A DNA stretch of 64,000 nucleotides from Magnetococcales bacterium (GTDB taxonomy: Bacteria > Pseudomonadota > Magnetococcia > Magnetococcales > UBA8363). Positions 35,755 to 62,574 of this stretch are shown one piece after another. Under the pieces are notes generated by a model. That model searched no databases. It had not been told where the DNA came from and saw nothing but the letters and a program-made list of their open reading frames with translations. Within the stretch, counting starts at the first letter, position 1, and every line of letters begins with the position of its first letter. The DNA lies in contig JADGCQ010000010.1 in NCBI GenBank assembly GCA_015228925.1, positions 1,128 to 65,127 on the forward strand, in the 5' to 3' direction. The position numbers and the translations under genes are program-made.

Positions 35755-35776
35755 CCTTCTCGTATTGGAAACATAC

Positions 35777-39838: not shown

Positions 39839-39863
39839 ACCCGCTTGCCATGTTGAGAAAACA

Positions 39864-48643: not shown

Positions 48644-51600
48644 TTGTCCGAGACACCACAAGCATCTTCCATTCTGCTGTCCCATCTGCATGGGCTGAGC
48701 GATCCCCACAGAAAAATTTTGCAATTGGTTGCCATTGCTTTTGATGTCATTCCGGCATCCTTGGTGGTGGCTTGTCTGAAAAAACTGAAAATCAAGCAGT
48801 CCAATGCCGGTTGGTTTAGTGTCAGAACCTTGCAGCCCTATATTGAGTCTTTGATTGCCATGGGTTTGCTCAAACGGGATTTGGATACGGGATTTCATTT
48901 TCGGATTGTCCCGACCATTGCCGATGCTGCGGTGCTAGAGGCGGTGGCGGATGGGGTGTTTGCCGATTTGATGCGGGTCATCGAAGGGGAATTGCCGTCG
49001 GTGCTGCATTCTGGCGGCGTGGGCGGGATGCCGCGTTTGTTGAGTTTTGATCGGGCTGTGCGGGAGATTCGTCTGGGGTTGCTGACGGGGGATGAGGAGC
49101 GGGTATTTCGTTTTCTGGGGTATGCCGCCAGCCAACGTTCTGAAGAGTATCGCAGGAATCCCCCGTTGGTTCGGTTGTGTGCCGAGCCGTGGGATCTGGA
49201 GCGGATGGCGGCGTTGCCATTGGGGATTCAGGTCAAGGCTTTGGAGGAGATGCTCACCTTGGCGTTGTTGAATCTGGACCCGGTGGATGGTTTTGGAAAA
49301 CTCCTGGAGATGCACCGTCATCAACCCTGCGCCAAAAACGGACCCGAATTGCGTGCCTTGTACATGATTGTCCTGTTGATTCAGGGGCGGTTGCAAGAGG
49401 CAGTGGATTTACTGGCGAATCACAAAACCAGACCTGTGGGGGCCGAGATTGTTTTCAAGGGGTGGATCGATTTTTTGAAGGGGAAAAATCGGCAGGCGAT
49501 TGCGACCCTCGATAAGATGGTATTGCTCCTTGACGATTTCCGGCTGATGAGCAAACACAATCCATTTCCTTATTATTGGGGCGGTTTATTTTTGTTGCTG
49601 GGGTTGTTGAAACAGGGGAAGGGGGAAGCCCGTCAGCATGTGTTGAATATTGTGCAACGGATGGAACGCAATCCCAACAATCCTCTGACTTCGGCCTGTC
49701 AGGCGATGCGGGCGGTGGCTTTGGCGCGGGGAGGAGATTCCGATCATGCTCTGTTGATCTTGGGTTATCGGGCCGAAACGGCCAAAGAGGGGCTTCCATG
49801 GCTCCGTTCCGAGATGGTGACCCCGCTCATGCCGGTTCGGGAAGGGGGGTGGAATCCGGCGTTGCCCAAAGCGGTGTTTTCGTGGCGTGCGGATGGCTTG
49901 CCCGAATTGTTTCGCATGATGGCTTTGTATTGGATCGATCATGAGGTGGCGGCGGTGGCGGCGGTTGTGGCGCATGTCACGGCGATTCACAAACGGGCCT
50001 TGGCGCATGATTATCCGTGGGTGGCGATGGAGACGGCGGCCTTGTTGGGGCGGTTGACGGAGCGGGATGATTGTCGTGAGACCCAGGAGGGCTTGGAAAA
50101 ACGGTTGGGTTTTTCCTGCGTGACGGCGCAGATTCAGCGTGAGGAACGATGGGAACAAACGTTGTCGGCCCTGATGAACCTGTTGGGGCGGGGGACAGAC
50201 GATTCGAGCGGCGATTCTTTTTTGAGTGGCAACCGGCGGTTGGTTTGGCTCATCGAAACCCATGGTCATCGTGGCAGCATCCAGGCACGGGAACAGACCC
50301 TTTCCGACACGGGGGAATGGAGTCGGGGCAAGGCGTTGTCGGCGCGGCGGCTCCATGGTGCCGAGATCCACAATTGGGGGTATCTCACCCCCCAGGACAT
50401 CAAGATATGCGCGGCGATCCGTCAGGAGTACATCTATAACGGCACCCGCTATGATTTTGATTGGGCGGGGGCGATGTTGGCCATGGTCGGGCATCCCCAG
50501 GTGTATTGGCTGGACAATCCCACGACGACCATCGAGGTGATTCGCGGGGAGCCGGAATTATTGGTGAATGAACACAATGGCCGGGTCCGTATCCGCTTTG
50601 CCCACAAGATTGAGGGGCCGGGGGTGCTGGTGTTGCGGGAGGGGGAGCGTCGTTGTCGGGTGATCGAAATCACCGGCGAACACCACAAGATCGCCGACAT
50701 CCTGGGACCGGAGGGGTTCAACGGTCCCGAAACCCAGAAGGGACGGGTTATGGGGGTGGTGGCGCGATTGGCCAACCTGGTGACGATTCAATCCACGGTG
50801 GATGTTGAAGCCGATGGGGAAGAGTTGGCGGAGGTGGAGGTTGATTCGCGTCCTCGGTTGCAGTTAGTCCCCAATGGTGCTGGATTATCGGCGCGTCTGT
50901 TGGTTCGTCCTTTGGGCACATCGGGTCCATGGTCCAGGCCGGGCAAGGGGAGTGTGGTGATGTTTGCCGAACGGGATGGCCAACGGGTGAAGGTCCGCCG
51001 CGATTTTCAACAGGAAAAACGGTTGGTGGAGGAGCTGGTGGGGCTATGTCCCGCGTTGGCGGGTCGTTCGGTGGACGATTGGTCGTGGACGTTGGGCAAG
51101 GTGGAGGACTGTCTGGAACTGTTGGCGGAGCTTCAGGAGGCGGGGGACAAGGTTGTGGTCGAATGGCCGGAGGGGGAGCGGTTTCGGCTGGCCAACAAGG
51201 TGACCATGGATCGTTTGCAATTAAAAATTCGCCGGGAGCGGGATTGGTTTGCGGTGTCGGGGACGGTGACGCTGGACGATGCCTTGGTGTTGGAGATGGG
51301 GCAGTTATTGAAAATCACCAAGGCAGGCGGGCGGTTTATCCCTTTGGGCAATGGCCAGTTTGCCGCCTTGACCGAAGCATTTCGCAAGCGGTTGGCCGAA
51401 ATGTTGGACATGGGGGAGGAGGGTTCCAAGGGGTGGAAGGTCCATGCGTTGACCTCACCATGGCTCAAGGAGATGGCGGGGGAGAGTGGCCGGGTTGTTG
51501 GGGACAAACATTGGAAGGAGCAGGTAGCGCGCCTGGATGCGATGGAATCGGGGGATGCGGCGGTCCCTTCGACTTTTCAGGCGGAACTGAGGGAGTATCA

Positions 51601-52972
51601 GATCAAGGGATTTCAATGGTTGCATCGATTGTCGGTTTGGGGGGTGGGAGGATGTTTGGCGGATGACATGGGGTTGGGCAAGACGTTGCAGGCGATGGCG
51701 TTATTGCTGCATCGCGCCCCGGATGGTGCTGGATTGGTGGTGGCCCCGACATCGGTATGTACCAATTGGGAGGCGGAAATCAAACGGTTTGCCCCCACCC
51801 TCAATCCGGTGATTTTGGGGGGGCCGAACCGTGCGGAACGGGTTTCGGGGTTGAAGGCGTTTGATGTTTTGATCGTGAGTTATGCCTTGCTCCAGATTGA
51901 AGAGGAACTGTTGGGGACGGTGATTTGGAACACCATTGTGTTGGATGAGGCGCAGGCGATTAAAAATCGGATGACCAAACGGTCTCGCGCCGCCATGGCG
52001 TTGCAGGGTCATTTTCGCTTGATGACCACGGGTACCCCCATCGAGAATCATCTGGGGGAATTATGGAATTTATTCCGTTTTTTAAATCCTGGTCTGTTGG
52101 GGTCGTTGGAGCGGTTTAACGAACGGTTTGCCATCCCCATTGAACGCTTTCGGGATCGGGAGGCGTCCCAGCGGTTGAAGACGCTGATTCGTCCTTTCAT
52201 TCTACGGCGGACGAAAAATCAGGTACTTCAGGAATTGCCGCCGTTGACGGAGATTGTGTTGCATGTGGAGATGGGACCGGAGGAGTCCGCCTTTTATGAA
52301 TCGTTGCGGCAGCGGGCCATGGCCGCTTTGGAGGGGGCGGATGATGCGGGAGATGGGCAGAATCATCTGGCGATTTTGGCGGAGTTAATGACTTTACGCC
52401 GTGCGTGTTGCAACAGTCGTCTGGTACAATCGAGTTTAGTATTGCCCAGTGCCAAGCTGGAGACATTCAAGGATGTGGCGCGGACGCTGTTGGACAATCG
52501 GCACAAGGCGTTGGTATTCAGTCAATTTGTCGGTCATTTGACCATTATTCGGGAATTCTTGGTGGCCGAGGGGATTTCATTTCAATATTTGGATGGCTCG
52601 ACCCCGGTGGCCAAGCGCAAGGAGAGTATCGACGCCTTTCAGAGCGGGGTGGGGGATTTCTTTTTGATCAGCCTCAAGGCGGGTGGGGTGGGGTTGAACC
52701 TGACGGCGGCGGATTATGTGATCCATATGGATCCCTGGTGGAATCCGGCGGTCGAGGATCAAGCCTCCAATCGGGCGCATCGGTTTGGCCAGAGGCGTCC
52801 GGTGACGGTATATCGGCTGGTGACCCGTGGGACCATCGAGGAGAAGATTGTTGAACTTCACGCGCAAAAACGCGATTTGGCCGATGATCTTTTGGAAGGG
52901 GGGGATATGAGTGGTCGTTTGAGTGCCGCCGAATTGTTGGGGCTGATCCGTATGCCGATGAACGGCGCATGA
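48644..52972 (+). CDS. SNF2-family ATPase/helicase with a ~950-aa uncharacterised N-terminal region
   Basis: 1442 aa, TTG start preceded by AAGGATGAAGGGG. C-terminal SNF2 motifs LREYQIKGFQWL, LADDMGLGKTLQA, LDEAQAIKN, LMTGTPIENHL, ALVFSQF, LISLKAGGVGLNLTAA, WWNPAVEDQASNRAHRFGQ. Confidence 0.88.
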   Translation: MSETPQASSILLSHLHGLSDPHRKILQLVAIAFDVIPASLVVACLKKLKIKQSNAGWFSVRTLQPYIESLIAMGLLKRDLDTGFHFRIVPTIADAAVLEAVADGVFADLMRVIEGELPSVLHSGGVGGMPRLLSFDRAVREIRLGLLTGDEERVFRFLGYAASQRSEEYRRNPPLVRLCAEPWDLERMAALPLGIQVKALEEMLTLALLNLDPVDGFGKLLEMHRHQPCAKNGPELRALYMIVLLIQGRLQEAVDLLANHKTRPVGAEIVFKGWIDFLKGKNRQAIATLDKMVLLLDDFRLMSKHNPFPYYWGGLFLLLGLLKQGKGEARQHVLNIVQRMERNPNNPLTSACQAMRAVALARGGDSDHALLILGYRAETAKEGLPWLRSEMVTPLMPVREGGWNPALPKAVFSWRADGLPELFRMMALYWIDHEVAAVAAVVAHVTAIHKRALAHDYPWVAMETAALLGRLTERDDCRETQEGLEKRLGFSCVTAQIQREERWEQTLSALMNLLGRGTDDSSGDSFLSGNRRLVWLIETHGHRGSIQAREQTLSDTGEWSRGKALSARRLHGAEIHNWGYLTPQDIKICAAIRQEYIYNGTRYDFDWAGAMLAMVGHPQVYWLDNPTTTIEVIRGEPELLVNEHNGRVRIRFAHKIEGPGVLVLREGERRCRVIEITGEHHKIADILGPEGFNGPETQKGRVMGVVARLANLVTIQSTVDVEADGEELAEVEVDSRPRLQLVPNGAGLSARLLVRPLGTSGPWSRPGKGSVVMFAERDGQRVKVRRDFQQEKRLVEELVGLCPALAGRSVDDWSWTLGKVEDCLELLAELQEAGDKVVVEWPEGERFRLANKVTMDRLQLKIRRERDWFAVSGTVTLDDALVLEMGQLLKITKAGGRFIPLGNGQFAALTEAFRKRLAEMLDMGEEGSKGWKVHALTSPWLKEMAGESGRVVGDKHWKEQVARLDAMESGDAAVPSTFQAELREYQIKGFQWLHRLSVWGVGGCLADDMGLGKTLQAMALLLHRAPDGAGLVVAPTSVCTNWEAEIKRFAPTLNPVILGGPNRAERVSGLKAFDVLIVSYALLQIEEELLGTVIWNTIVLDEAQAIKNRMTKRSRAAMALQGHFRLMTTGTPIENHLGELWNLFRFLNPGLLGSLERFNERFAIPIERFRDREASQRLKTLIRPFILRRTKNQVLQELPPLTEIVLHVEMGPEESAFYESLRQRAMAALEGADDAGDGQNHLAILAELMTLRRACCNSRLVQSSLVLPSAKLETFKDVARTLLDNRHKALVFSQFVGHLTIIREFLVAEGISFQYLDGSTPVAKRKESIDAFQSGVGDFFLISLKAGGVGLNLTAADYVIHMDPWWNPAVEDQASNRAHRFGQRRPVTVYRLVTRGTIEEKIVELHAQKRDLADDLLEGGDMSGRLSAAELLGLIRMPMNGA

Positions 52973-53004: not shown

Positions 53005-56000
53005 ATGGCTTATACATGGTTGCACCTTTCCGACATTCACATGGGATGCCGTGGAGAAGAAATCCGCAGACAGGTGGATGCGGAGTTTAAACCCCACCTT
53101 CAGAAGATGGTGAAACGGCTGGGGGCACCGGACATGATCCTGCTGACCGGGGATCTGGCCTTTAGTGGCAAGGAGGAGGAATACAAGCAGCTTGATGCGT
53201 TTTTGGCGGCACTGACAGGATGGATCAGGGAGATCCAGCCCGATGCCCCCCCGCCGATTTGGGTACCGGTGCCGGGCAACCATGATCTGGCTAGGCCCGA
53301 TAGAAATGATTTGGTCCTGGACTTTGCCAACTTGAAACAAGTAGCGGATGGGGATGAGTCTGTACGCCACGGTTTGGGCCAACGTTTTTTCTCGAAAAAA
53401 AATGTCCAGCTTATCGCCCCGCTGTTCCAGGCGTACCAGGATTGGTTTGCCCATAAGGTGAAACCGGGTTGGGAGGGCAGGGACTTTCATCTTTCCCATT
53501 TCCCCGGTGACTGGTGCCTGGAGTTGAACCTGCCGGACCGTTTTCCTTTGCGTCTGGTCGGTTTAAATTCTGCCTGGATGCATTTGGGAGACGGCTTTGC
53601 CCATCAAAAACTGGGGCTTTTCACCCAACAATTACAGGCAGCTTTGGGAGAGAATAAAAACCTGGAATTTGCCCAGGGACCAGCACTGTTATTGCTGCAC
53701 CATCCCCCCTTGACATGGTTTTCATCCAAAGCACTCACGCGGTTCAAGGAAGAAATATATACCCCAAAACGTTTTCACGCCTGCCTGTTTGGCCACATGC
53801 ATGATGAAAACACGACCGTGATCTTTGAGGCGGGCGGACCGCCACGCTATTATCTTCAAGCCCCCTCCCTGTTTGGTGTGGAAAAACTGGGTACTTCCCA
53901 AGAGGAACGTCGGTTTGGTTATGGTTGGGGTCGGGTGACGCAGGAGGGGGAAATTTTCACTTGGCCTTTTCTGCGGGGCAAACATGGCGGGGAGCAGCAA
54001 TTTATTTGGAACTCCAACTTTTCCGGCAATGTGGAAACCGGCCATCCGTTCCGAACCAAGATGCAAGCGGTCGCTACCGTGCCGACTGTCGATCTTAAAC
54101 CCTGGCTCCGTTCCCTTCACGACCGCACCAGACATATCAAGATCAGCGGCATCGGCTCCGGCGGTGGGAGTGGCAAGAATGCCAACCTTTATCCCATCGA
54201 GCAGCTTTACACGGTTCTGAAAAGTCGTGATGTTGTAGAGGGTGGTGATCCTCTTCGTGCCGAAGAGGTCAATCTGGCCGACCTGTTGCCCAGGTACCAG
54301 CGGTTGTTCATCGAGGGGCAGCCGGGGGCGGGCAAGACGACGTTTCTGTATCTGGCCGCCGCCATGTTGGCCAAGGATCTGTTGGGAGAGGCTGGCCCGC
54401 AAGGGGAATCCTGGCGTAAACGATATTTGGGGATGGATGACCGCCAGGAAGCACCGACCCCTCTTTTTCTAAAATTATCGGAGTTGGCGGCATGGCTGGC
54501 TGATCCTAAAACACCCCAAAAAGCGGACGACCGTTTTCGCTTGTTGGATTTCCTCCAGACCACAGCCGATGCCGGGAAAGAAGACGCTTGGCGGGAGCAT
54601 TGGCAATGGTTGTTGGATGCGGGACACGCCATTCTCCTCCTGGATGGTCTGGACGAGGTGGCGGACGAAAGGGTGCGCGAACGGGTATTCGCCATTTTTC
54701 AGAATGCGGCGACCCATTGGCAAAAAATCGCCATCATCGTCAGCAGCCGTCCCTTCGGTGCGGAGAGGCTCACCGCAATGGGTTTTCACCGAACGGTGAT
54801 CGAACCGTTTGGCGCAGTTCAGGTCCGGGAGTTCATCAACCGTTGGTCGGCGGCCCTGTATGGCCATGCCATTGGCGAGCAGCCCACCGGCGAAGCGGGT
54901 AAACATACCGAAACTTTGGAAAAGGCGATTCTTGACAAGCCCACCATCCGCAAGTTGGCCTCCAATCCCGTCATGTTGACCTGCCTGTGCGTGGTTCATT
55001 GGAACGAAGGGCAATTGCCGGAAGGGCGGACGCGGGTTTATAAGGCGGTAATCCGTTGGTTGCTGGGGAGTCGGGAAGAGCAACGAACCAAAGCGGGATG
55101 CACCAACCGTTTTGCCCTGGAGGCTTTTTCCGCCATTGCCTTGACCATGATGGGAAACAGCAAGGGTGATAAGAAGGCCATCTTCGATTTGGAAGAGGCA
55201 GCCGTCGCCGTCGAGTCGCTCCATGCACGCCATTTCCCGAAAGTCACGATGGACCGGCTGATTTTGGTTCGGGAATGGGTCCGTTTTGAGTGTTTGTATA
55301 GTGGCATTCTGGAGGAGACGAGCCGAAACCGTCTCCGTTTCTGGCATTTAACCTTCCAGGAATATTTGGCGGCGCAAAACTTGGCTTGGATGAGCGATGA
55401 CAAGGACAATGGCTGGTGGTCGGTTGTCAAAAACCGGCTGGAAAACGCCCAGTGGCGGGAGACGGTAGATTTGTTTCCGGGGGCATTGTTTGATGAGGGG
55501 GGCGGACGCCGGGTGGATGAGTTACTGACGCGGGTGCTGAAAAAATATCCCGGTAATGATTTGGCGCAGGATGCCCGCAAGGCCGGTATTTTGGGGCGGA
55601 TCCTGGAGCCGATGAGGGTGTATGAATATCAGCCCAAGCCGGAAATTCAAGCTCAGTACCGGGAGGTGCTGGACCGGGCTATGGACATCTTCGAGCCGAA
55701 GGGGGCGGCCAGAGTCCCTATTGCCGTGCGCCTTCCGGCGGCGGAGGCGTTGGGCCAGGGGGGAGATCCCCGTTTTACCGGGGATCGCTGGCGGGAAGAC
55801 CTGATCAAAGTCCCCGGCACAGCCATCGCCTTGGGAAAATATCCGGTGACGGTGCAGGAATACCAACGGTTTGTCGAGGATGGCGGTTATGACAATCCCG
55901 ATTATTGGCAGGAAGATCGCGCCTGGACTTTCCGCCAAGCTGAGAAATGGCAGGAACCGGATGAGTGGGCCAATCAGTTGGACCATCCCAACCGTCCGGT

Positions 56001-56469
56001 AGTGGGGGTCTGCTGGTATGAAGCGGCGGCTTATTGCGTGTGGCTCGGCAGGAATAAAGGTGTCAAGTTTTTCTTGCCCGAGGAGAAGGATTGGGAAACA
56101 GCCGCTACCCCTGCCCAAGGGGAATATCCCTGGGGTAAGCCGGGCCCGACCCCGGAGTTAGCCAACTATGGTGATGGCCAGATTGGCGCACCGACGCCGG
56201 TGGGTCTCTATCCCGTCGGCAATGGTCCCTACGGTCATTGTGATCTGGCGGGCAACGTTTGGGAATGGTGTGCTAGCCCGGGGGAGGGTGATGATGTGTC
56301 TGACGAGGAGATTCAAAAGTACGGACTACCGAAGGTGCTTAAGGGCGGGTCCTGGTACTACGCGGCTGGCGACCTCCGCGCTGCTGGGCGTAACGGGAGC
56401 CGTGCCGATTACCGCCTCGTCGGTCTGGGCTTTCGCGTCGCCGCCCCCGCCAGCATGATTGATCCTTGA
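53005..56469 (+). CDS. DGR target 1: metallophosphoesterase-NACHT/STAND NTPase-FGE-sulfatase (C-type-lectin fold) protein with C-terminal VR
   Basis: 1154 aa; no signal peptide seen. Calcineurin-like motifs LHLSDIHMG, LLTGDLAFSG, VPGNHD, LLLHHPP, LFGHMH. Walker A IEGQPGAGKTTFL (nt ~54316-54342), Walker B ILLLDGLDEV. C-terminal FGE fold PVVGVCWYEAAAYCVWLG, LAGNVWEWC, KGGSW...LGFRVAAP. The last 42 codons carry VR1. Confidence 0.85.
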   Translation: MAYTWLHLSDIHMGCRGEEIRRQVDAEFKPHLQKMVKRLGAPDMILLTGDLAFSGKEEEYKQLDAFLAALTGWIREIQPDAPPPIWVPVPGNHDLARPDRNDLVLDFANLKQVADGDESVRHGLGQRFFSKKNVQLIAPLFQAYQDWFAHKVKPGWEGRDFHLSHFPGDWCLELNLPDRFPLRLVGLNSAWMHLGDGFAHQKLGLFTQQLQAALGENKNLEFAQGPALLLLHHPPLTWFSSKALTRFKEEIYTPKRFHACLFGHMHDENTTVIFEAGGPPRYYLQAPSLFGVEKLGTSQEERRFGYGWGRVTQEGEIFTWPFLRGKHGGEQQFIWNSNFSGNVETGHPFRTKMQAVATVPTVDLKPWLRSLHDRTRHIKISGIGSGGGSGKNANLYPIEQLYTVLKSRDVVEGGDPLRAEEVNLADLLPRYQRLFIEGQPGAGKTTFLYLAAAMLAKDLLGEAGPQGESWRKRYLGMDDRQEAPTPLFLKLSELAAWLADPKTPQKADDRFRLLDFLQTTADAGKEDAWREHWQWLLDAGHAILLLDGLDEVADERVRERVFAIFQNAATHWQKIAIIVSSRPFGAERLTAMGFHRTVIEPFGAVQVREFINRWSAALYGHAIGEQPTGEAGKHTETLEKAILDKPTIRKLASNPVMLTCLCVVHWNEGQLPEGRTRVYKAVIRWLLGSREEQRTKAGCTNRFALEAFSAIALTMMGNSKGDKKAIFDLEEAAVAVESLHARHFPKVTMDRLILVREWVRFECLYSGILEETSRNRLRFWHLTFQEYLAAQNLAWMSDDKDNGWWSVVKNRLENAQWRETVDLFPGALFDEGGGRRVDELLTRVLKKYPGNDLAQDARKAGILGRILEPMRVYEYQPKPEIQAQYREVLDRAMDIFEPKGAARVPIAVRLPAAEALGQGGDPRFTGDRWREDLIKVPGTAIALGKYPVTVQEYQRFVEDGGYDNPDYWQEDRAWTFRQAEKWQEPDEWANQLDHPNRPVVGVCWYEAAAYCVWLGRNKGVKFFLPEEKDWETAATPAQGEYPWGKPGPTPELANYGDGQIGAPTPVGLYPVGNGPYGHCDLAGNVWEWCASPGEGDDVSDEEIQKYGLPKVLKGGSWYYAAGDLRAAGRNGSRADYRLVGLGFRVAAPASMIDP
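56343..56452 (+). repeat. DGR variable repeat VR1
   Basis: Gap-free match to TR 57794-57903 with 14 mismatches, all at TR adenines (hand alignment). Lies in the last 42 codons of the 53005-56469 CDS. Confidence 0.9.
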
Positions 56470-56498: not shown

Positions 56499-56519
56499 CC
56501 AGGGGGCGCAGCCCCCTGG
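56499..56519 (+). promoter_or_regulatory. GC hairpin 29 nt downstream of the VR1-gene stop (candidate DGR target-recognition hairpin/cruciform)
   Basis: CCAGGGGGC-gca-GCCCCCTGG: 9-bp perfect stem, 3-nt loop. The same element at the same spacing follows VR2. Confidence 0.7.
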
Positions 56520-56653: not shown

Positions 56654-57346
56654 ATGACAAAGAACACGAGGGATTGTCATGTGAATCTGTCTCTGACCGA
56701 AGCGGCCATCGTCCTGGGGAAGACCCCTCGGCAGGTGCGCTATCTCATCAAGAACGGGACGCTGAAGGCGAAGAAGGAAAAGGGGTGCTGGGTCATCGAC
56801 AACGCCGATCTTCCCCTTTCCGCCGCCCAGCGTCAGGCGGTGGCCCGACGTGCCGAGACCGCACAGAATGCCATGGCCGAAGCCACCGAACCGCTGCGAA
56901 AAGCGGCATCCCCGGCCCCTTCCCCCGCAGAAACGAAAACCGCAGACGGCGAAAAAGAGAAAAAAGTCTATTCCGTCACCGATCTGAAGGCTTTTACCCT
57001 GGGAGCGGACATTTGCCGGGCGTTGGAAACGCATCTGGGCCGGGAGGATTCCGCCAGGCTTTGCCTTTTTGAAGCCCTGAAGAAGCTCTGCCGGGGGTGT
57101 CACGCCTTTCAACCGCCCCAAAAGGAGGCTCGTTTTACCGAGGCACGGGAGGCGGCAGCGGATGCGGTCGCCATCTTGCTCCTGGAAGGCGATGCCGATG
57201 ATCCCCAGCGCACCACCCTGGCCCGCCGCATTGAGACCGAACTGATCCCCAAGCTGGCGGCGTTGGCCGCTGGTCAGGAAAAACGGGCGCGCAAAAAACA
57301 GCAGGGGAGCCTCAGCGGCTTTTTCCCCGGCATGCTTGGGGAGTGA
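56654..57346 (+). CDS. helix-turn-helix (excisionase/MerR-like HTH) protein, DGR-associated
   Basis: 230 aa. N-terminal LSLTEAAIVLGKTPRQVRYLIKNGTLKAKKEKGCWVI resembles an HTH_17-type motif. Stop overlaps the avd start (GTGATG). An alternative GTG start at 56681 has GAGGGA upstream. A long antisense ORF is considered a GC shadow. Confidence 0.6.
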   Translation: MTKNTRDCHVNLSLTEAAIVLGKTPRQVRYLIKNGTLKAKKEKGCWVIDNADLPLSAAQRQAVARRAETAQNAMAEATEPLRKAASPAPSPAETKTADGEKEKKVYSVTDLKAFTLGADICRALETHLGREDSARLCLFEALKKLCRGCHAFQPPQKEARFTEAREAAADAVAILLLEGDADDPQRTTLARRIETELIPKLAALAAGQEKRARKKQQGSLSGFFPGMLGE

Positions 57347-57687
57347 TGCGACCCGCCCCCCTGTATGGCGACACCATGCGCCTCGCCGCCCTGATTCTTC
57401 GGTTGACCGAAACACCGACGTTCAGGCAGTCACCATTGGGGCGGCGCTTGCAGGATGGTGCGTTGCGTCTTGTGGATCATGTGGTGTTGGCGTTGGCCGG
57501 CCAGGACCGGCAACACCGCATCGCTGCCGCCGATGCCGAACTGCAAACCTTGCGTGCCCATTGTTTTCTCGCGCTTCAAATGGCCTTGATGGAGGAAGAT
57601 TCTTTTTTGATACTGGCCGAAGCGGCCCAAAAGGTGGGTCGGCAATTGGGTGGATGGATCAAAAAAGGGCGGGCTAAATCCGCTTGA
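57343..57687 (+). CDS. avd: DGR accessory variability determinant (Avd, four-helix-bundle family)
   Basis: 113-114 aa, basic and helical. C-terminus AEAAQKVGRQLGGWIKKGRAK resembles Bordetella phage bAvd AEVGRILGSWIARVNRKGQ. Located immediately upstream of TR and RT. Start is GTG 57343 or ATG 57346. Confidence 0.8.
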   Translation: MMRPAPLYGDTMRLAALILRLTETPTFRQSPLGRRLQDGALRLVDHVVLALAGQDRQHRIAAADAELQTLRAHCFLALQMALMEEDSFLILAEAAQKVGRQLGGWIKKGRAKSA

Positions 57688-57793
57688 CGCCGCAGAAAAC
57701 TTGCCTCCCAGGGGAGGGGCCGCTATTCTGAACTGGGGACGCTTCGAAACAAGAATTCCGCTATGGCTATGGACATCACCATGAACCCACAAG

Positions 57794-57903
57794 GGGCGGG
57801 TCCTGGAACAACGCGGCTGACAACCTCCGCGCTGCTAGGCGTAACAGGAACCATGCCGATAACCGCAACGACAATCTGGGCTTTCGCGTCGCCGCCCCCG
57901 CCA
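57794..57903 (+). repeat. DGR template repeat (TR)
   Basis: Non-coding copy of VR1/VR2 between avd and RT. 23 adenines in 110 nt; seven AAC codons when read in the VR frame (RGGSWNNAADNLRAARRNRNHADNRNDNLGFRVAAP). Confidence 0.9.
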
Positions 57904-57970
57904 ACACGCCGGACACATCCGCCGTGCAGAAGTGGCCCCGGTGCTTGCATTGTGCGCCGAAACATCCCAT

Positions 57971-58020
57971 GCCCGCCCGTTCTCGTAGGCAGCAGACGCC
58001 GAGCGTCCGGGCGGGCTTTT
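57971..58020 (+). other. GC-rich stem-loop plus T-tract in the TR-RT spacer
   Basis: GCCCGCCCG (57971-57979) pairs with CGGGCGGGC (58008-58016). Inner GACGC/GCGTC pair (57995-57999 / 58003-58007). Followed by TTTT (58017-58020), 15 nt before the RT ATG. Confidence 0.55.
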
Positions 58021-58034
58021 TCGCCTTTGTGACC

Positions 58035-59027
58035 ATGCGTCGCTTTGGCAATCTGTTTGTGGAGGTCGCCTCGACGAACAATCTTTGGCGGGCCTGGCAG
58101 GACTTTTCCAAAGGAAAACGCCAGCGCATCACGGTGGCTGATTTTGTATGGCAAGCACCCCAGGAAGTTGTGTCTCTGCACCAGCAATTGATGGCGGAGA
58201 ACTATCGCCCCCAGGGCTATCGTCTGAAAATGATTCATGAACCCAAACACCGCCTGGTGGCGGCAGCTCCGGTGTGTGACCGAATCGTCCATCATGCCAT
58301 CTATCGAATTCTCTCACCGCTTTTGGATCCAGGGTTGATCCGGGAGACCTGGGCCTGTCTGCAAGGGCGCGGCAGCCATCGGGCGCAAATCGCCTGTGTG
58401 GGGGCCATGCGGAATTATCCCTGGCGGATGGCCCTGGATATACGCCATTACTTTCCCAGTATTGATCACGCCATTCTTCTGGAGGAGGTCATGGCGCGGC
58501 GTATCAAGGACCGGCGTCTGCTCGAACTGCTCAGGAAAATCTGTCGCAGTGGTGCTGGACTCTATCGGCATCCGGGGATTGGGGAATTTTTGGATTTTCC
58601 CCCTGGTTTTCCCCCGGATGGATGTGGTCTGCCCATTGGCAATCTGACCAGTCAGTGGCAGGCCAATCACTATCTTTCGGGATTGGATCACCATGCCAAA
58701 CGGGTTCTTGGGGTTCCCGCCTACCATCGGTACATGGATGACATGGTTTTTTTCGCCCATTCCAAAAGCCAGTTGCAGGAGACCCGTGACGCCGTGGCCC
58801 AATGGCTTTGGGTGTATCGGCGTCTGAAATTGAAACATCCCAACGCCGCCATCCGTTCCACCAAGCAACCCATGACCTGGCTGGGCAAACGCATTTCCAC
58901 CGCCGGTATCAACCCAAGTCGGCGGCAGATTCGCAAAATGCAGTGTCGGATGACAACCCTGGTCCGTCAGGGGGATGAGGAGACCATCCGCCATGCCGTT
59001 GCCTCCTATCGCGGAGTGCTGTTGTAA
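58035..59027 (+). CDS. DGR reverse transcriptase
   Basis: 330 aa from MRRFGNLFVEVASTNNLWRAWQDFSKGKRQR. RT motifs include LPIGNLTSQWQANHYL (the I/LGxxxSQ signature of DGR RTs) and catalytic YHRYMDDMVFF. Start set at ATG 58035, downstream of TR; the track ORF begins at 57924, 21 nt downstream of TR. Confidence 0.88.
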   Translation: MRRFGNLFVEVASTNNLWRAWQDFSKGKRQRITVADFVWQAPQEVVSLHQQLMAENYRPQGYRLKMIHEPKHRLVAAAPVCDRIVHHAIYRILSPLLDPGLIRETWACLQGRGSHRAQIACVGAMRNYPWRMALDIRHYFPSIDHAILLEEVMARRIKDRRLLELLRKICRSGAGLYRHPGIGEFLDFPPGFPPDGCGLPIGNLTSQWQANHYLSGLDHHAKRVLGVPAYHRYMDDMVFFAHSKSQLQETRDAVAQWLWVYRRLKLKHPNAAIRSTKQPMTWLGKRISTAGINPSRRQIRKMQCRMTTLVRQGDEETIRHAVASYRGVLL

Positions 59028-59185: not shown

Positions 59186-59206
59186 CCAGGGGGCTACGCC
59201 CCCTGG
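59186..59206 (-). promoter_or_regulatory. GC hairpin 29 nt downstream of the VR2-gene stop
   Basis: On the coding (minus) strand: CCAGGGGGC-gta-GCCCCCTGG. Mirror image of the 56499-56519 element. Confidence 0.7.
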
Positions 59207-59235: not shown

Positions 59236-62200
59236 TCAAGGATCAACCATGCTGGCGGGGGCGGCGACGCGAAAGCCCAGAAAGACGTAGCGGTTATCGG
59301 CATGGCTCCAGTTACGCCCAGCAGCGCGGAGGCTGTCAGCCGCGAAGCCCCAGGACCCGCCCCTGATAGGATGAACATCTCGATCACCTTTGGTGATAAC
59401 GGGATCCTGGGTTGGCACCGCGCCAGTGCGTTTTTTATAAGCCTTCTCATCCCAAATATCTCGGCACCATTCCCAGACGTTGCCGGCCAGATCGAGATGG
59501 CCGAAAGGACCACGGCCAGCGGGATATTGTCCCACCAGTTCCGGCTTCCCTTTTTGCCCGTCCAAGCCAAAACAGGCCAACTCCTTCGTTGGTTTTTTAT
59601 CGCCGTCCCAGGGATAAACGCGACCATCGCTTCCCCGTGCGGCATATTCCCATTGCGCCTCGCTGGGTAGAAGAATGGGACTCCCGGACTCTTTGCTGAG
59701 CCATGCGCAAAAGGCCATGGCATCGTTCCAATCCACACCTACTACCGGCTGCTCTGGATCCGAGAATCTTTGGTCGCGCCAATACTCAGGTTCTTTGTGT
59801 TTTACCGCTTTGAGAAAAAGTCCATACTGTTGGTTGGTCACTGGTGTTTCCGCCAATAGGAACGGCGAGAGTTTCACCCGATGCTCCGGTTTTTCATAAC
59901 TGTTTCCTTTGTTGTCTCCCATGGTGAAAATGCCACCGGGTACCGGCAACAGCCGTAGCCCCGGCAAAGGCTCCAGAATTTTCGTTGCCGTGATCTCTCG
60001 GCCATGAACGGCGTTGACCAGGGCTTTTGCCCCCGCTGCCAGGGAGGAACGGGCATCGACCATTACGGTCCCCAGTGGTGCGGGGAGCTTGGGTGCCGCC
60101 GGGCTATCCGGCGTGAACACTGTGATCAGGCGGCAGTCGCTGGCCAGATAGTGCAACCCCTCTTCACATTCGGCGTCGGTAAACAGACGGTCTTCAGCAC
60201 CGAGCAGAAAGGCAACGGCCCCGACCTTGGCCCGAATCGGATCCAGGTATTGCAGCCATTCGTTGGAGACCCATTCCCGCGCCGTTTTCGGCCAGACATG
60301 CACCCCCGCATCGGCCAGGAGAGGGGCCAATTGTTCGGCGAAGGTCTCCCTATCGGCATCATGGATCAGTAGCAGGTCATAGTCTTTGCCACCCGCTTCG
60401 CCCAACAGCCCCTGTGCCAGCCTGGAGACGTTTTCATCTGTATGTTGTTTCAGCCCCTCCGCAGCCGCTAGAACGGCGGTATCGGTCACCCCCTTGAGTA
60501 GCCGCAGAATCGCCGTCAGGTGTCCCACCGACGTTTTTTTATCCTGTAGTGCCTTGGCAAAAACAGAATAATCGGTCTGTTCCGCCTCGGTCAGCATATC
60601 CCGCATCAGATTGGCGCGGTCTCCCTTGAGAATATCCGGCAACAGCCGCGTCATGAACGGCGCGAATAGTTGATGGTCTGGGATCCCCACCAATAACAAC
60701 AACACCTCGCGCCACCATTTTTCATCCCCCTGACTTGCCAGAAAGTCCAAGAGCGTTTCGTCCGACGACGCCATCACCACATGCCGCGCCGCCAGATATT
60801 CCTGCAACCCCAGATGCATGAAGCCATACTGATTGGGTGCATATTCGATGAAAACGCCCGTATCGCGGTGGAGCCACTCCAAAATTTGGAGTCCCGTGGG
60901 TCTGTTTTTTTGACTGGGCAAGCATTTTTCAGCAAAATTGGCAAATTCCAGCCGTTTGACATTATCGCGGCGGTTTTCCTGGTGAAGTTTCCAGGCCAGG
61001 GGGCGCAGGATGTCCAGGGCTGTTTTTACATCCAGGAGTGGTTCACCCCCAGTTTGCTCCCGACGCCATTTGCCCAATAGGATTTCCAGGCATCGTTGAT
61101 AAAACGCCGCCCGTTTTTTGGGAATTTCTCCCACCCGGAGTACCACTACACACAACAGGGTGAGCAACAGTGGGTTGCCCATCAACACCTTGATGCGTTG
61201 GTCGGAAAAATTATTCTCATCCATGGCTTTGAGGAGGCGCAGGGAACGGGCTTTGGCTTCATTAGCCAAGTCGGGTACGAGATATTGGCCAGCCTCATCG
61301 AACCAAACTTTGACGAATTCCTCGACCTGTTCACCATCCAGGGGTTTGACATCCAGGGGAAAGAAATTTTCCAGCCGCACCCCATCCCCATATCCGGTAA
61401 AACGACAAGAGACGGCGGCGTAGATCTGCTGGTTTTGTAAACCGACCAGACCATCGTTGATTCGTTTTGCCACTTTGGCCCGCAGGTTGGAGTCGGCGAT
61501 TTCATCCAAGCCGTCGAAGAGGAGCAACAGCTTGCCATCTTTCCAATAATCCCGGCCTAGTTCTTTTGGGAAACGCCCGGCGGAAAGATCTCCTAATTCT
61601 TTGTCGATGAAGGATTGGAGGGGTATATGCAGATATTCTTCGCTAAAATGGCGCAGACGCAAAAAGACCGGCATCAACCCTTCCGGTAACCCCAAAGAGT
61701 GCGACCCTTGGATGAGGCAATGGTGCAGCATTTTTTTAAGCGAGGTCGTTTTGCCCGCACCCGGTTCACCAAACAACACCACGCACTGCCGCAAGCCGCC
61801 GTCCGCATTTTTGAAAGCCTCTTCCAGTTTGACATCACCAGCACTTTGCTGCCACGCCTCCTCGGCTATGCGCCCCCGACGCTCTTTCAGATCAACCCCA
61901 AAGGCGCGTTGCGAGATGCGCAACGGCACATAGACTTCATTTAAATCTAGGGAAATATCACCACCATCCACCCCCAACAACGACAACCGGCCAAATTTCT
62001 CCAGTGCCCAGGTGGAATAGCCATCTTTCCCGGTGTTTGCAATCTTTTCCTCCACGGGTGGAGGCTGCTTGGCCAGTTCTCGGATACGTTGGGACAGTTC
62101 CAGAAATTTTCTTTTCCTTTCTACAGGTTGCAATTCCTCCAATGTTTTGCCTGGTGTTCCGAATCCTTGAAACTCGGTCAGTTTTATCTGGGAAGTGGTG

Positions 62201-62574
62201 CCACTGTCTGGGTGAATAAAAGAAATCTCGCCGACGGATGATGGTGATAAAAACACGGGAAGGATCGTGAGTCGTCCCTGTTCACTCGCGGAAAGAATAG
62301 GAGGAAGTTCATATGTTTTAATAAAATGAGAGGCTAGAAAAATTTCCGAGATAAACAAAATGGCTGTTTGTGTTTGGCGCAGTGCTTCCTCTATCTCTTT
62401 GCGCCATTTGTCTCCTGCTTTGATGTCTTGATCTACCCAAACTCGGGCAACTCCGTCAGCCTCCAAAGTTTGTTTGAAAGGGAGAAACTCTCGCAGCACT
62501 TCTTCATCCGCGTGACTATAGCTGATAAAAACTTTTGATCTTTGCACGACTTTCATCCATTCAATTTGGGTCAC
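59236..62574 (-). CDS. DGR target 2: TIR-NACHT/STAND NTPase-FGE-sulfatase (C-type-lectin fold) protein with C-terminal VR
   Basis: 1112 aa; no signal peptide seen. N-terminal TIR-like KVFISYSHADEEVLREFLPF...VWVDQDIKAGDKWRKEIEEAL...AILFISEIFLAS. Walker A LFGEPGAGKTTSL (nt ~61744-61773), Walker B LLLLFDGLDEI. C-terminal FGE fold PVVGVDWNDAMAFCAWLS, LAGNVWEWC, RGGSW...LGFRVAAP. Start is GTG 62574 or ATG 62556. Confidence 0.85.
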   Translation of the reverse strand: MTQIEWMKVVQRSKVFISYSHADEEVLREFLPFKQTLEADGVARVWVDQDIKAGDKWRKEIEEALRQTQTAILFISEIFLASHFIKTYELPPILSASEQGRLTILPVFLSPSSVGEISFIHPDSGTTSQIKLTEFQGFGTPGKTLEELQPVERKRKFLELSQRIRELAKQPPPVEEKIANTGKDGYSTWALEKFGRLSLLGVDGGDISLDLNEVYVPLRISQRAFGVDLKERRGRIAEEAWQQSAGDVKLEEAFKNADGGLRQCVVLFGEPGAGKTTSLKKMLHHCLIQGSHSLGLPEGLMPVFLRLRHFSEEYLHIPLQSFIDKELGDLSAGRFPKELGRDYWKDGKLLLLFDGLDEIADSNLRAKVAKRINDGLVGLQNQQIYAAVSCRFTGYGDGVRLENFFPLDVKPLDGEQVEEFVKVWFDEAGQYLVPDLANEAKARSLRLLKAMDENNFSDQRIKVLMGNPLLLTLLCVVVLRVGEIPKKRAAFYQRCLEILLGKWRREQTGGEPLLDVKTALDILRPLAWKLHQENRRDNVKRLEFANFAEKCLPSQKNRPTGLQILEWLHRDTGVFIEYAPNQYGFMHLGLQEYLAARHVVMASSDETLLDFLASQGDEKWWREVLLLLVGIPDHQLFAPFMTRLLPDILKGDRANLMRDMLTEAEQTDYSVFAKALQDKKTSVGHLTAILRLLKGVTDTAVLAAAEGLKQHTDENVSRLAQGLLGEAGGKDYDLLLIHDADRETFAEQLAPLLADAGVHVWPKTAREWVSNEWLQYLDPIRAKVGAVAFLLGAEDRLFTDAECEEGLHYLASDCRLITVFTPDSPAAPKLPAPLGTVMVDARSSLAAGAKALVNAVHGREITATKILEPLPGLRLLPVPGGIFTMGDNKGNSYEKPEHRVKLSPFLLAETPVTNQQYGLFLKAVKHKEPEYWRDQRFSDPEQPVVGVDWNDAMAFCAWLSKESGSPILLPSEAQWEYAARGSDGRVYPWDGDKKPTKELACFGLDGQKGKPELVGQYPAGRGPFGHLDLAGNVWEWCRDIWDEKAYKKRTGAVPTQDPVITKGDRDVHPIRGGSWGFAADSLRAAGRNWSHADNRYVFLGFRVAAPASMVDP
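59253..59362 (-). repeat. DGR variable repeat VR2
   Basis: The reverse complement matches TR 57794-57903 without gaps. 12 mismatches, all at TR adenines. Lies in the last 42 codons of the 59236-62574 CDS. Confidence 0.9.

Follow-up and report, generated by a model that had tools for sequence, protein, structure and literature searches.

Introduction

The closest characterised relative of the protein described here is DS-8 (DefensePredictor system 8), a single MPP-NACHT protein of E. coli that protects against phage (Science 2026, PMC13092281). Its defence is lost when catalytic residues of the metallophosphatase (MPP) domain or an NTPase residue of the NACHT domain are mutated, and in the DS-8 paper its MPP is likened to SMPDL3A, a phosphodiesterase that acts on nucleotides and cGAMP (PMC13092281). 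Calcineurin-like domains of conflict systems have been predicted by Kaur et al. to be nucleotidyl phosphodiesterases (PMC7159879), and the effector domains listed in the literature as associated with bNACHT proteins include calcineurin-like phosphoesterases.

DGR-diversified STAND-CLec sensors, one of them with a PF00149 domain, were described by Dore et al. (2024, PNAS; PMC10907252). In DGR clade 5D, the 'STAND NTPase antigen sensors', two targets each contain a central NACHT/nSTAND and one C-terminal C-type-lectin (CLec) VR, which is also the layout found here, and N-terminal effectors such as TIR have been reported (PMC10907252). The DGR 7 target of Thiohalocapsa PB-PSB1 was drawn with PF00149 'Metallo', NACHT and CLec, as in the protein below, but it also carries a vWA and is part of a MoxR/VMAP ternary system, in which PF00149 was interpreted as serving signal transduction (PMC10907252).

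The locus analysed here lies in the window, namely the whole 64,000-nt stretch of DNA, and judging from its sequence its target 1 is a candidate bacterial immune sensor of the NLR type, with an N-terminal metallophosphoesterase (MPE) 'warhead' and a tip that would be rewritten by the adjoining retroelement. DGR-diversified NLR-like proteins are the nearest bacterial analogue of a somatic-hypermutation receptor repertoire, and to our knowledge no member of the DGR-diversified STAND-CLec/NLR-like proteins has been experimentally characterised.

Domain architecture of target 1

From the N- to the C-terminus, target 1 contained a calcineurin-like MPE, a NACHT NTPase and an FGE/C-type-lectin domain according to Pfam (Table 1); the HMM and structure searches that the initial annotation had proposed upheld all three of its domain calls. 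The full-length AF2 model had a mean pLDDT of 88.1, and no signal peptide was found in the protein.

Table 1. Positions of the target genes, their domains and the DGR elements in the window
Feature	Position	Strand	Evidence and remarks
Target 1 gene, MPE-NACHT-CLec	53005..56469	+	ATG start, 1154 aa; ORF list, translation
MPE module, aa 1-350	53005..54054	+	Catalytic core and beta-rich C-terminal subdomain (aa ~290-350); PF00149, NCBIfam, Foldseek
NACHT NTPase	54295..55794	+	NBD aa 431-620, helical/winged-helix region aa 621-930; motifs, Pfam, Foldseek
C-terminal FGE-type CLec sensor domain, aa 931-1154	55795..56466	+	PF03781
VR1	56343..56455	+	aa 1113-1151, near C-terminal end of CLec; 87% identical to TR
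GC-rich hairpin 3' of VR1	56499..56519	+	9-bp stem, 3-nt loop; repeat, DNA fold z-score -2.7
HTH_17-like accessory ORF	56654..57346	+	230 aa; weak PF12728 match
avd (accessory variability determinant)	57343..57687	+	114 aa; PF22296 bAvd E 1.2e-8, under family gathering score
TR (template repeat)	57792..57906	+	Repeat pairing with VR1 and VR2
DGR reverse transcriptase (RT)	57924..59027	+	PF00078 E 4.2e-11; PADLOC RT E 2.7e-36
Hairpin after VR2	59186-59206	-	Same element as after VR1; repeat/fold
VR2	59250-59364	-	Inside target 2; 13/13 TR/VR2 mismatches at TR adenines
Target 2 gene, TIR-NACHT-CLec	59236..62574	-	1112 aa; Pfam TIR_2 8.5e-20, NACHT 1.6e-6, FGE 2.5e-52

All five MPE motifs (DxH, GD, GNH[DE], H and GHxH) were present in canonical order, and every string quoted in the initial annotation was located: LHLSDIHMG (aa 6), LLTGDLAFSG (46), VPGNHD (89), LLLHHPP (229) and LFGHMH (261). 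Pfam Metallophos (PF00149) matched aa 6-267 (E 3.9e-10; 40.9 bits against a cut-off of 21.5), and the eight metal ligands (D10, H12, D50, N92, H93, H232, H264 and H266) were invariant across 99 homologues. The alignment thus shows that the predicted catalytic site is complete and that purifying selection on it is strict, in agreement with the earlier view that the domain looks catalytically competent. That view was to be given up if the N-terminus proved to be of a non-catalytic or unrelated family or to have lost its metal-binding residues; by profile it belongs to the catalytic MPE superfamily, and these residues were all kept.

The MPE domain model (pLDDT 89.6, pTM 0.91) had its top Foldseek match in YydB of Bacillus subtilis (PDB 9a6c_B; E 1.1e-16, TMq 0.60), an entry that is an integrative model of the YydD-YydB complex rather than a crystal structure. 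YydB is a separate polypeptide partnering YydD and lacks a NACHT fusion, unlike the MPE of target 1, and the literature search found no paper on its function. The best solved neighbours were Rv0805, GpdQ and Lmo2642 (class III cyclic-nucleotide phosphodiesterases and relatives) together with SMPDL3A and acid sphingomyelinase (ASM), at E 2e-10 to 8e-9, with which target 1 has in common the binuclear-metal MPE fold and motif set; Mre11/SbcD were weaker (E 1e-6 to 1e-5), and the Foldseek probability was 1.00 against each of Rv0805, GpdQ, SMPDL3A, PAP and Mre11. This likeness to phosphodiesterases holds at the superfamily level only, since the MPE is only 12-18% identical to these five neighbours (TM 0.4-0.6) and differs from solved phosphodiesterases in conserved inserts (helices 100-156), the beta-rich 290-350 subdomain and the tether to an NTPase switch. 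In the PDB sequence search the best match was Rv0805, with SbcD and Mre11 weak. The nearest solved fold relatives are small-molecule phosphodiesterases, which speaks for a small molecule with a phosphodiester or pyrophosphate bond as substrate and against DNA ends.

The P-loop module that the initial annotation had placed at about aa 438 was found there, with Walker A GQPGAGKTT at 438-446, Walker B LLLDGLDE at 544-551, S581-R582-P583 and the winged-helix H781 in FWHLTFQEYLAA. Walker A and B, the SRP and the winged-helix His were invariant or nearly so in 75 full-length homologues. Pfam NPHP3_N matched aa 433-582 (27.3 bits, passing the 24.8 cut-off), and Pfam NACHT (PF05729) matched aa 528-615 at 24.2 bits, slightly under its gathering score of 26.7, while being precomputed on most target 1 homologues. 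Foldseek aligned the modelled central region with NLRC4, NLRP3, NOD2 and NAIP5 (E 1e-11 to 1e-9, approximately 590-640 aligned columns), consistent with the NBD-HD1-WHD-HD2 fold of animal NLRs.

Pfam FGE-sulfatase (PF03781) covered aa 942-1146 (E 2.8e-37), starting at about nt 55828, close to the nt 55800 given before for an FGE-fold domain, and PDB sequence matches of the domain included EgtB, ToxD and FGE, as well as TvpA (2y3c), which is itself a variable protein of a DGR.

The DGR and diversification of the sensor tip

Besides target 1, the DGR cassette contained an HTH gene, avd, TR, RT and a convergent target 2, so that by its gene and repeat content the DGR is complete and canonical. 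The RT translation had the IGNLTSQ and YMDD motifs, and homologues of the HTH gene adjoined avd/RT in two related loci, L008 and L028 (PF12728 E 3.5e-9 and 6.8e-7). No extra TR copy was found inside the 64,000-nt window. Housekeeping genes (metX/metW, hisG and dapF) flank the DGR locus. The host is a Magnetococcales MAG; the literature stresses a multicellular setting, outside which this host falls.

VR1 differed from TR (57794-57906) at 15 positions, all 15 at TR adenines, in line with the lectin-fold sensor having been called 'diversified'; over both targets, 28/28 TR/VR mismatches fell at TR adenines and non-adenine drift was zero. The 25 adenines of the TR (113 nt aligned) were each at the first or second position of a codon in the target frame. 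Compared with the closest homologue (87% identical), target 1 had 64% identity in the VR and 84-91% elsewhere, the differences piling up at those VR codons where variation was predicted. The repeats and protein alignments together show that RT, Avd and TR would diversify 16 codons (aa 1118-1151) of the CLec fold in an adenine-directed manner; the lack of any non-A TR/VR mismatch and the low VR identity support mutagenic homing indirectly. The hairpin 3' of VR1 is, from its sequence, a putative DGR target-recognition element.

Target 2 and the pairing with NADase twins

Target 2 was 40% identical to target 1 in the CLec and 27% in the NACHT domain, and the two targets had one common TR and independent VR sequences. 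A second target was present at six MPE-type loci, at all of which the partner was a TIR (window, L001, L008, L011 and L025) or SIR2 (L028) protein; at half of the MPE-type loci none occurred within 8-10 kb. A TIR domain was found at 5/12 MPE-type loci versus 7/62 other NACHT-CLec loci. The paired loci descend from one ancestral cassette, and hence none of these counts are independent. Single-chain TIR/SEFIR-MPE-NACHT-CLec fusions were also encountered (P0004, P0102 and P0119). The recurrent pairing of MPE sensors with TIR or SIR2 twins is a side lead.

In one unlikely reading, the MPE sensor would be functionally coupled to a NADase twin (TIR; SIR2 in one relative) to give a two-enzyme output, in which the twin would cleave NAD+ or make an ADPR-derived signal and the MPE would hydrolyse the ADPR/cADPR-type product. 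If so, NAD+ loss could become irreversible against phage NAD+-reconstitution pathways, or the TIR signal could be tuned, and the locus would represent a DGR-programmed dual-receptor immune module with metabolically linked arms.

Proposed mechanism and alternative explanations

The best explanation, to which we give a probability of about 0.7, is that target 1 acts in the cytoplasm as an NLR-like (STAND/NACHT) sensor-effector whose tip is rewritten by the DGR and whose phosphodiesterase is triggered by a ligand, leading to cell arrest or death. A hypervariable CLec variant would bind the ligand that fits it, which would most probably come from a phage or another invader, upon which the NACHT module could exchange nucleotide and oligomerise, gathering the N-terminal MPE domains and turning on the binuclear-metal phosphodiesterase. 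Candidate substrates include (cyclic) nucleotides, ATP/NTP and the NAD derivatives ADPR/cADPR; by abortive infection, their hydrolysis would lead to arrest or death of the cell, and the convergent TIR-NACHT-CLec twin may act in parallel. Ligand, oligomerisation, activation and toxicity are steps that we infer. Points that weigh against this explanation are the Pfam NACHT score just under threshold, the low whole-protein score against the DS-8 model, a fold likeness to phosphodiesterases at superfamily level, the scarcity of DGR RTs at related loci and a host from outside the multicellular setting. A phosphoesterase as the output of a STAND switch, as proposed in the initial annotation, agrees by analogy with DS-8, which needs both its MPP and its NACHT residues.

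With the same architecture and logic, the MPE could instead be an Mre11/SbcD-type nuclease degrading DNA or RNA when activated, in the manner of the Avs nuclease effectors, which we regard as possible but unlikely. Nucleases predominate among the Avs effectors characterised so far (background in PMC10907252), SbcD and Mre11 were recovered, though weakly, by sequence and structure, and PADLOC matched target 1 to the CBASS 'Effector / Endonuclease' model PDLC00736 (E 2.5e-8), which with PDC-S60 made up its only matches, both in the MPE region. However, the PDLC00736 match spans residues 1-119 only, corresponding to the generic motifs I-III, and in Foldseek the small-molecule phosphodiesterases were 4-6 orders of magnitude ahead of Mre11/SbcD; the likening of the DS-8 MPP to SMPDL3A (PMC13092281) and the prediction of Kaur et al. 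(PMC7159879) point the same way. Of the nucleic-acid or nucleotide-signal hydrolysis suggested earlier, the modelled structure favours the small-molecule phosphodiesterase over the nuclease, neither being proven.

It is improbable that the MPE is a signal processor tied to its NADase twin rather than a killer, either quenching TIR-made nucleotide signals (cf. SMPDL3A and cGAMP) or destroying ADPR/cADPR so that NAD+ loss is irreversible. The TIR or SIR2 partner at each two-target locus, the TIR frequencies, the single-chain fusions and the nearness of the MPE fold to cyclic-nucleotide and nucleotide phosphodiesterases would fit this role, but the pairing counts share one ancestry, half of the MPE-type loci lack a nearby second target, and DS-8 works alone, with no TIR partner (PMC13092281). 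Each twin has moreover its own independently diversified VR, so that as a rule they would respond to separate ligands. A role outside phage defence, raised explicitly by Dore et al. (PMC10907252), is quite improbable: target 1 would then be a hypervariable receptor for self/non-self (kin) recognition or regulation, comparable to heterokaryon incompatibility by fungal NLRs or 'regulatory tuning' by cyanobacterial DGR targets. The missing signal peptide, the housekeeping neighbours and the absence of any phage linked to the locus would be compatible with such a receptor, while a cytoplasmic location argues against the sensing of neighbouring cells. Furthermore, TIR, SIR2 and the MPE module belong to the usual repertoire of defence effectors, the only NCBIfam MPE models matched (DS8 and DS9_1), like PDC-S60 of PADLOC, represent anti-phage or candidate defence proteins, and DS-8 is a validated anti-phage protein (PMC13092281).

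A protein identical to target 1 is present in NCBI nr, from a Magnetococcales MAG, under the name 'SUMF1/EgtB/PvdO family nonheme iron enzyme', and its C-terminal domain is indeed similar in sequence to EgtB, FGE and PvdO. A non-haem iron or formylglycine-generating enzyme is nevertheless highly improbable. The NCBIfam equivalog scores were far under their cut-offs (EgtB 89.9 versus 360, SenA 85.2 versus 420, PvdO 32 versus 500), and this identity was rejected. Pfam found no DinB-like iron-binding domain, the CLec domain is also similar to TvpA, and residues 1113-1154 contained no cysteine; this stretch, which we take to be the site of the FGE catalytic cysteine pair, is here the hypervariable VR. 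Our analysis thus corrects a misleading database name.

Relation to known systems and distribution

Like DS-8, target 1 starts with a metallophosphatase followed by a NACHT NTPase, and the MPP domains of DS-8 are homologous to its MPE. DS8 and DS9_1 were the only NCBIfam MPE models matched, DS8 being anti-phage; the DS8_antiphage model (NF053861) matched the MPE region only, with E 9e-22, residues 7-289 aligning to model positions 1-251 of 994 with 76.6 bits against the 790 of an equivalog. By analogy target 1 would work like DS-8, yet it is not a member of the DS-8 family: DS-8 is without CLec domain and DGR and has a germline-fixed sensor, whereas target 1 adds a retroelement-diversified CLec. 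The tripartite plan of effector, STAND NTPase and C-terminal sensor is also that of Avs and bNACHT proteins (Gao 2022; Kibby 2023), from which target 1 differs in having a hypermutated CLec fold instead of TPR or another fixed repeat as sensor, and an MPE instead of a nuclease, protease or TIR as effector; in PADLOC, target 1 gave zero matches to curated Avs or bNACHT models. Compared with PB-PSB1 DGR 7, target 1 is a tripartite NLR-like protein that stands alone and begins with its MPE, and its host is a Magnetococcales MAG.

The initial annotation could name no characterised homologue with this three-part architecture, but the architecture is no orphan: among the best 120 homologues listed, 77 had a similar length and the same three Pfam domains, and a PF00149, NACHT and CLec DGR target was drawn by Dore et al. 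(2024). The implied novelty was therefore too high, and target 1 is a good fresh example of an already published system type, with no class of its own; frameworks with the same logic have been published (PMC10907252, PMC7159879). The locus is a compact candidate for experimental study, its parts appearing intact (two targets, avd, HTH gene and RT motifs) and an anti-phage role having been proved genetically for DS-8, the domain-level relative of its effector. Two questions could be approached with this locus: which substrate a metallophosphoesterase hydrolyses when switched on by a STAND module, and whether phage molecules are recognised by hypervariable lectin tips.

Dozens of proteins had the MPE-NACHT-CLec architecture, their sources including Magnetococcales, Nannocystis and Acidobacteriota. 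A DGR RT was present within the flanks of only 3/12 MPE-NACHT-CLec loci examined (window counted), so diversification is not universal in this family. The same MPE module was joined to many STAND, TPR, HEAT and EAD chassis, indicating a portable effector, and the NACHT-CLec chassis elsewhere carried a TIR, Mrr, DUF4062 or ParA-like domain in place of the MPE.

Domain architecture of the target 1 protein

The protein encoded by target 1, which joins a calcineurin-like metallophosphoesterase (MPE), a NACHT NTPase and a domain of the C-type-lectin/FGE fold (CLec), is a well-preserved member of a published class of NLR-like sensors diversified by a diversity-generating retroelement (DGR) and not a new category. 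The reading of the initial annotation, a phosphoesterase fused to a NACHT module and a diversified lectin-fold sensor, is upheld. Conflict systems that are built around NTPases and carry DGR-diversified FGS/CLec domains were described by Kaur et al. 2020 (PMC7159879), who predicted that the calcineurin-superfamily domains of such systems are nucleotidyl phosphodiesterases. DGR clade 5D of Dore et al. 2024 (PMC10907252) has two targets, each of which has a STAND NTPase at its centre and one CLec variable region, and with TIR or peptidase N-termini in some; the same authors figured a Thiohalocapsa target composed of PF00149, NACHT, vWA and CLec domains. Beyond Dore et al., no experimental work on DGR-NLR systems was found in the literature after 2024.

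All five MPE strings quoted in the initial annotation were recovered by motif search in canonical order (residues 6, 46, 89, 229 and 261), and the Pfam search assigned residues 6-267 to Metallophos above the gathering score (E 3.9e-10), not to a non-catalytic or unrelated family. The P-loop module lies where it had been placed, with Walker A (GQPGAGKTT) at residue 438 and an extended NACHT-type Walker B (LLLDGLDE) at residue 544; over residues 433-615, NPHP3_N scored above its cut-off and NACHT 2.5 bits below. The proposed C-terminal FGE-fold domain matched Pfam FGE-sulfatase at residues 942-1146 (E 2.8e-37). Judged by these profiles, the domain scores are far above chance level.

A full-length AlphaFold2 model, built on an alignment of 75 homologues, reached a mean pLDDT of 88.1. 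In Foldseek, its central region superposed on NLRC4, NLRP3, NOD2 and NAIP5 over ~600 columns (E 1e-11 to 1e-9) and its C-terminus on EgtB, ToxD and FGE folds, and sequence comparison also matched the C-terminal domain to TvpA, a DGR variable protein of Treponema. The NACHT signature (G441/G443/K444/T446, D547/E551, S581-R582-P583 and H781 in FWHLTFQEYLAA) was invariant or nearly so in 75 full-length homologues. Since the first MPE beta-strand of the model starts at residue 2 and a leader peptide is absent, target 1 should be cytoplasmic.

An identical protein from a Magnetococcales MAG is entered in NCBI nr as 'SUMF1/EgtB/PvdO family nonheme iron enzyme'. Residues 1113-1154 of target 1, the variable stretch, contain no cysteine, and they correspond to the region that carries the catalytic cysteine pair in FGE; Pfam found no DinB iron-binding domain in the protein. 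On these grounds the name is a domain-transfer artefact, and the equivalog scores likewise spoke against an FGE/EgtB-type enzyme, which was ruled out.

The DGR and its probable activity on target 1

The DGR is canonical, and 16 codons in the lectin tip are its predicted sites of rewriting. An element of 113-115 nt occurs in three copies, at the 3' ends of targets 1 and 2 (variable regions VR1 and VR2) and upstream of the reverse transcriptase (RT) gene (template repeat, TR), with no fourth copy in the 64-kb window. TR differs from VR1 at 15 positions and from VR2 at 13, and 28 of 28 mismatches fall at TR adenines, so that the word 'diversified' in the initial annotation was justified, VR1 lying within the target 1 ORF. 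All 25 adenines of the 113-nt TR occupy codon position 1 or 2 in the target frame (TR-encoded peptide RGGSWNNAADNLRAARRNRNHADNRNDNLGFRVAAP, VR1-encoded KGGSWYYAAGDLRAAGRNGSRADYRLVGLGFRVAAP), which is the classic AAY-codon design. A 9-bp GC hairpin with a 3-nt loop stands ~45 nt beyond the stop codon, 3' of both VRs. The two targets have the TR in common and differ in VR sequence; they are 40% identical in CLec and 27% in NACHT.

Features of the DGR island and of its closest relative
Feature	Coordinates	Strand	Size	Remarks
SNF2-family helicase	48644-52972	+	1442 aa	PADLOC DpdE/ZorD-like, E 1e-184
Target 1 ORF	53005-56469	+	1154 codons	ATG start; ORF list and translation
VR1	56343-56455			3' end of target 1 ORF; repeat analysis
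HTH_17-like ORF	56654-57346	+	230 aa	between target 1 and avd; weak HTH_17 match
avd	57343-57687		114 aa	bAvd match, E 1.2e-8
TR	57792-57906			just 5' of RT gene; repeat analysis
RT	57924-59027			RVT_1 (Pfam); DGR hallmark IGNLTSQ; YMDD
Target 2	59236-62574	-	1112 aa	TIR-NACHT-CLec (Pfam)
VR2	59250-59364	inverted		3' end of convergent 1112-aa gene; repeat analysis
Closest relative (locus L001)	GCA_002753615.1 PEAO01000008.1, 1437-8965			target 1 87% identical

Homologues of the HTH_17-like ORF adjoin avd/RT in two distant DGR loci, L008 and L028 (PF12728, E 3.5e-9 and 6.8e-7), and the ORF is a candidate for a conserved DGR accessory or regulatory gene. Shorter matches to it were also seen at two further loci, L025 and L011.

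Comparison with L001 indicated that the two proteins are 91% identical in MPE, 87-88% in NACHT and the helical region, 83.5% in the constant part of CLec and 64% in VR, where the differences fall at predicted variable codons. This concentration of divergence provides comparative evidence that diversification really acts on the VR of target 1. L001 retains both targets, with TIR split off as a separate ORF; HTH, avd, TR and RT are all missing, with a coiled-coil ORF of ~160 aa in their place, and mismatches between its VRs and the window TR also occur at positions other than adenines. It looks like a decaying or frozen copy, with the DGR recently lost and the receptors left frozen.

The locus survey, covering 80 loci from species-representative genomes and 6 looked up directly, yielded 11 distinct MPE-NACHT-CLec loci besides the window. 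A DGR RT was found within the flanks of 2 of these 11 (L008 of Ca. Multivoradales, and L028) and near ~11 of the roughly 60 NACHT-CLec loci whose N-termini are of other kinds; obligate linkage is thus not supported, and DGR linkage of MPE-NACHT-CLec genes is facultative. On Nannocystis punicea CP114040 (~2.468-2.488 Mb; loci L004/L010), three clustered CLec genes, including two MPE-NACHT-CLec paralogues of 1163 and ~1466-1519 aa, lie beside a phage-type integrase. Because no RT was found within 8-10 kb of them, these genes may encode sensors that are diversified in trans or fixed in the germline, within a mobile island.

Relatives and re-use of the MPE module

The MPE was present in 99 of the best 120 homologues listed, and 77 of the 120 were of about query length and had the three-part architecture in common. 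Homologues aligning over the full length were 32-87% identical to target 1 and came from Magnetococcales, Rhodospirillales, the isolates N. punicea and N. pusilla, Thermoanaerobaculia, Acidobacteriota and others. On the NACHT-CLec chassis, the N-terminal MPE could be replaced by TIR, ParA/MinD-like, DUF4062 or Mrr domains or be missing, the pattern expected of an interchangeable effector.

Searching residues 1-432 alone against 1.84 billion representatives gave 1212 clusters at E <= 1e-10 and 273 at E <= 1e-30. Among 84 long members, the partners were NACHT (38) and FGE (34), further STAND types (nSTAND1, nSTAND5, AAA_35, NB-ARC), and also TPR, HEAT, EAD1/EAD2, TIR, CHAT, SIR2, kinases and dynamin. 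Within STAND proteins the MPE is thus a portable module, and individual homologues show that its re-use is free: P0113, with 67% identity in the MPE, joins it to a TPR array, P0221 to a dynamin-like GTPase, and P0251 to a Ser/Thr kinase and FGE domain.

Comparison with known defence systems

DS-8, a single-protein MPP-NACHT anti-phage system of E. coli, was validated in the DefensePredictor study (Science 2026, PMC13092281), in which mutation of the MPP catalytic residues or of NACHT abolished defence and the MPP was compared to SMPDL3A. The bNACHT paper also counts calcineurin-like phosphoesterases among NACHT-associated effector domains. Of the NCBIfam MPE families, the target 1 MPE matched DS8 (E 9e-22) and DS9_1 (E 1e-8) and no other. 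The two MPPs are homologous at domain level, but target 1 is not a DS-8 member, the DS8 model scoring 76.6 bits against a cut-off of 790 and matching the MPP region only. No bridging DS-8 equivalog reached the cut-off among 9 MPE-bearing representatives and 2 isolate proteins (Pseudomonas sp. App30 L076 and Puniceibacterium L080). PADLOC matched the MPE region to PDC-S60 and to the CBASS 'Endonuclease effector' model; Avs/bNACHT membership was rejected, as no such model matched target 1. The effector domain of target 1 has a genetically validated anti-phage relative. Target 1 is a good experimental candidate.

Proposed mechanism and substrate of the MPE

The NTPase and phosphoesterase active sites of target 1 are intact and conserved. 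Eight metal ligands (D10, H12, D50, N92, H93, H232, H264 and H266) were invariant in the 99 MPE-carrying homologues among the best 120 listed, the sole exceptions being N-terminally truncated sequences. The alignment thus disclosed no loss of metal-binding residues, consistent with the catalytic competence anticipated by the initial annotation. Analogy with Avs, bNACHT, animal NLRs and DS-8 suggests that one VR variant of the CLec tip would bind an invader-derived ligand in the cytoplasm, whereupon NACHT would exchange nucleotide and oligomerise, and clustering of the MPE domains could switch on hydrolysis, most likely of a nucleotide-type phosphodiester or pyrophosphate, leading to growth arrest or death. 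Rv0805 and GpdQ, relatives in the MPE fold, are active as oligomers. We put the probability of this model at about 0.7.

Foldseek matches of the full-length model, mostly NLR and FGE, gave no information on the MPE, so residues 1-360 were modelled separately (pLDDT 89.6, pTM 0.91). The best solved neighbours (E 2e-10 to 8e-9) were Rv0805, GpdQ, acid sphingomyelinase, SMPDL3A, purple acid phosphatase and Lmo2642, with TM-scores of 0.4-0.6 that place the assignment at superfamily level; Rv0805, a class III cNMP phosphodiesterase, was also the best PDB match by sequence. A nuclease acting on nucleic acid, as in Mre11 or SbcD, was demoted from first choice because those structures, although matched (E 1e-6 to 1e-5 only), were 4-6 orders of magnitude worse than the phosphodiesterases. 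The modelled fold leans towards a small-molecule phosphodiesterase; within the overall model a small-molecule substrate is slightly favoured, and a nuclease is rather unlikely. The top match overall was modelled B. subtilis YydB (9a6c_B, E 1e-16), a chain of an integrative model of the YydD-YydB complex; no usable literature on YydB/YydD function was found, and the pair could be a related two-gene system.

Functional coupling of the MPE with NADase effectors was also weighed. In all six loci where a second target stands beside the MPE sensor, this twin has a domain that consumes NAD+ (TIR at five of them, namely the window, L001, L008, L011 and L025, and SIR2 at L028), and three single chains (P0004, P0102 and P0119) combine TIR/SEFIR, MPE, NACHT and CLec. 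The twins are convergent NACHT-CLec genes. A TIR profile matched 5 of the 12 MPE-type loci; among the other 62 NACHT-CLec loci it matched 7 (Fisher p 0.02, or 0.005 with SIR2 counted, for loci that are not phylogenetically independent). Given this non-independence, and half of the MPE-type loci being solitary, such coupling is considered improbable.

Genomic surroundings

The DGR cassette and the upstream SNF2 helicase form a ~14-kb island between housekeeping genes, with metX/metW and hisG upstream and dapF downstream of the cassette. The SNF2 gene ends 33 nt 5' of target 1, and the N-terminal ~650-940 aa of its product had no profile match (Pfam matches from residue 985, PADLOC from 658). 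Its adjacency to target 1 is kept only in the near-identical L001, where the SNF2 protein is 97.6% identical; it was thus dropped as a system component and treated as a neighbour, and may be an independent defence gene within the same island. Elsewhere in the window, an unrelated signalling cluster of ordinary appearance (33574-41021, forward strand) encodes a DctP/periplasmic-binding fusion, a 1370-aa hybrid histidine kinase (Cache-PAS-HisKA-HATPase-REC-Hpt) and a REC-histidine kinase.
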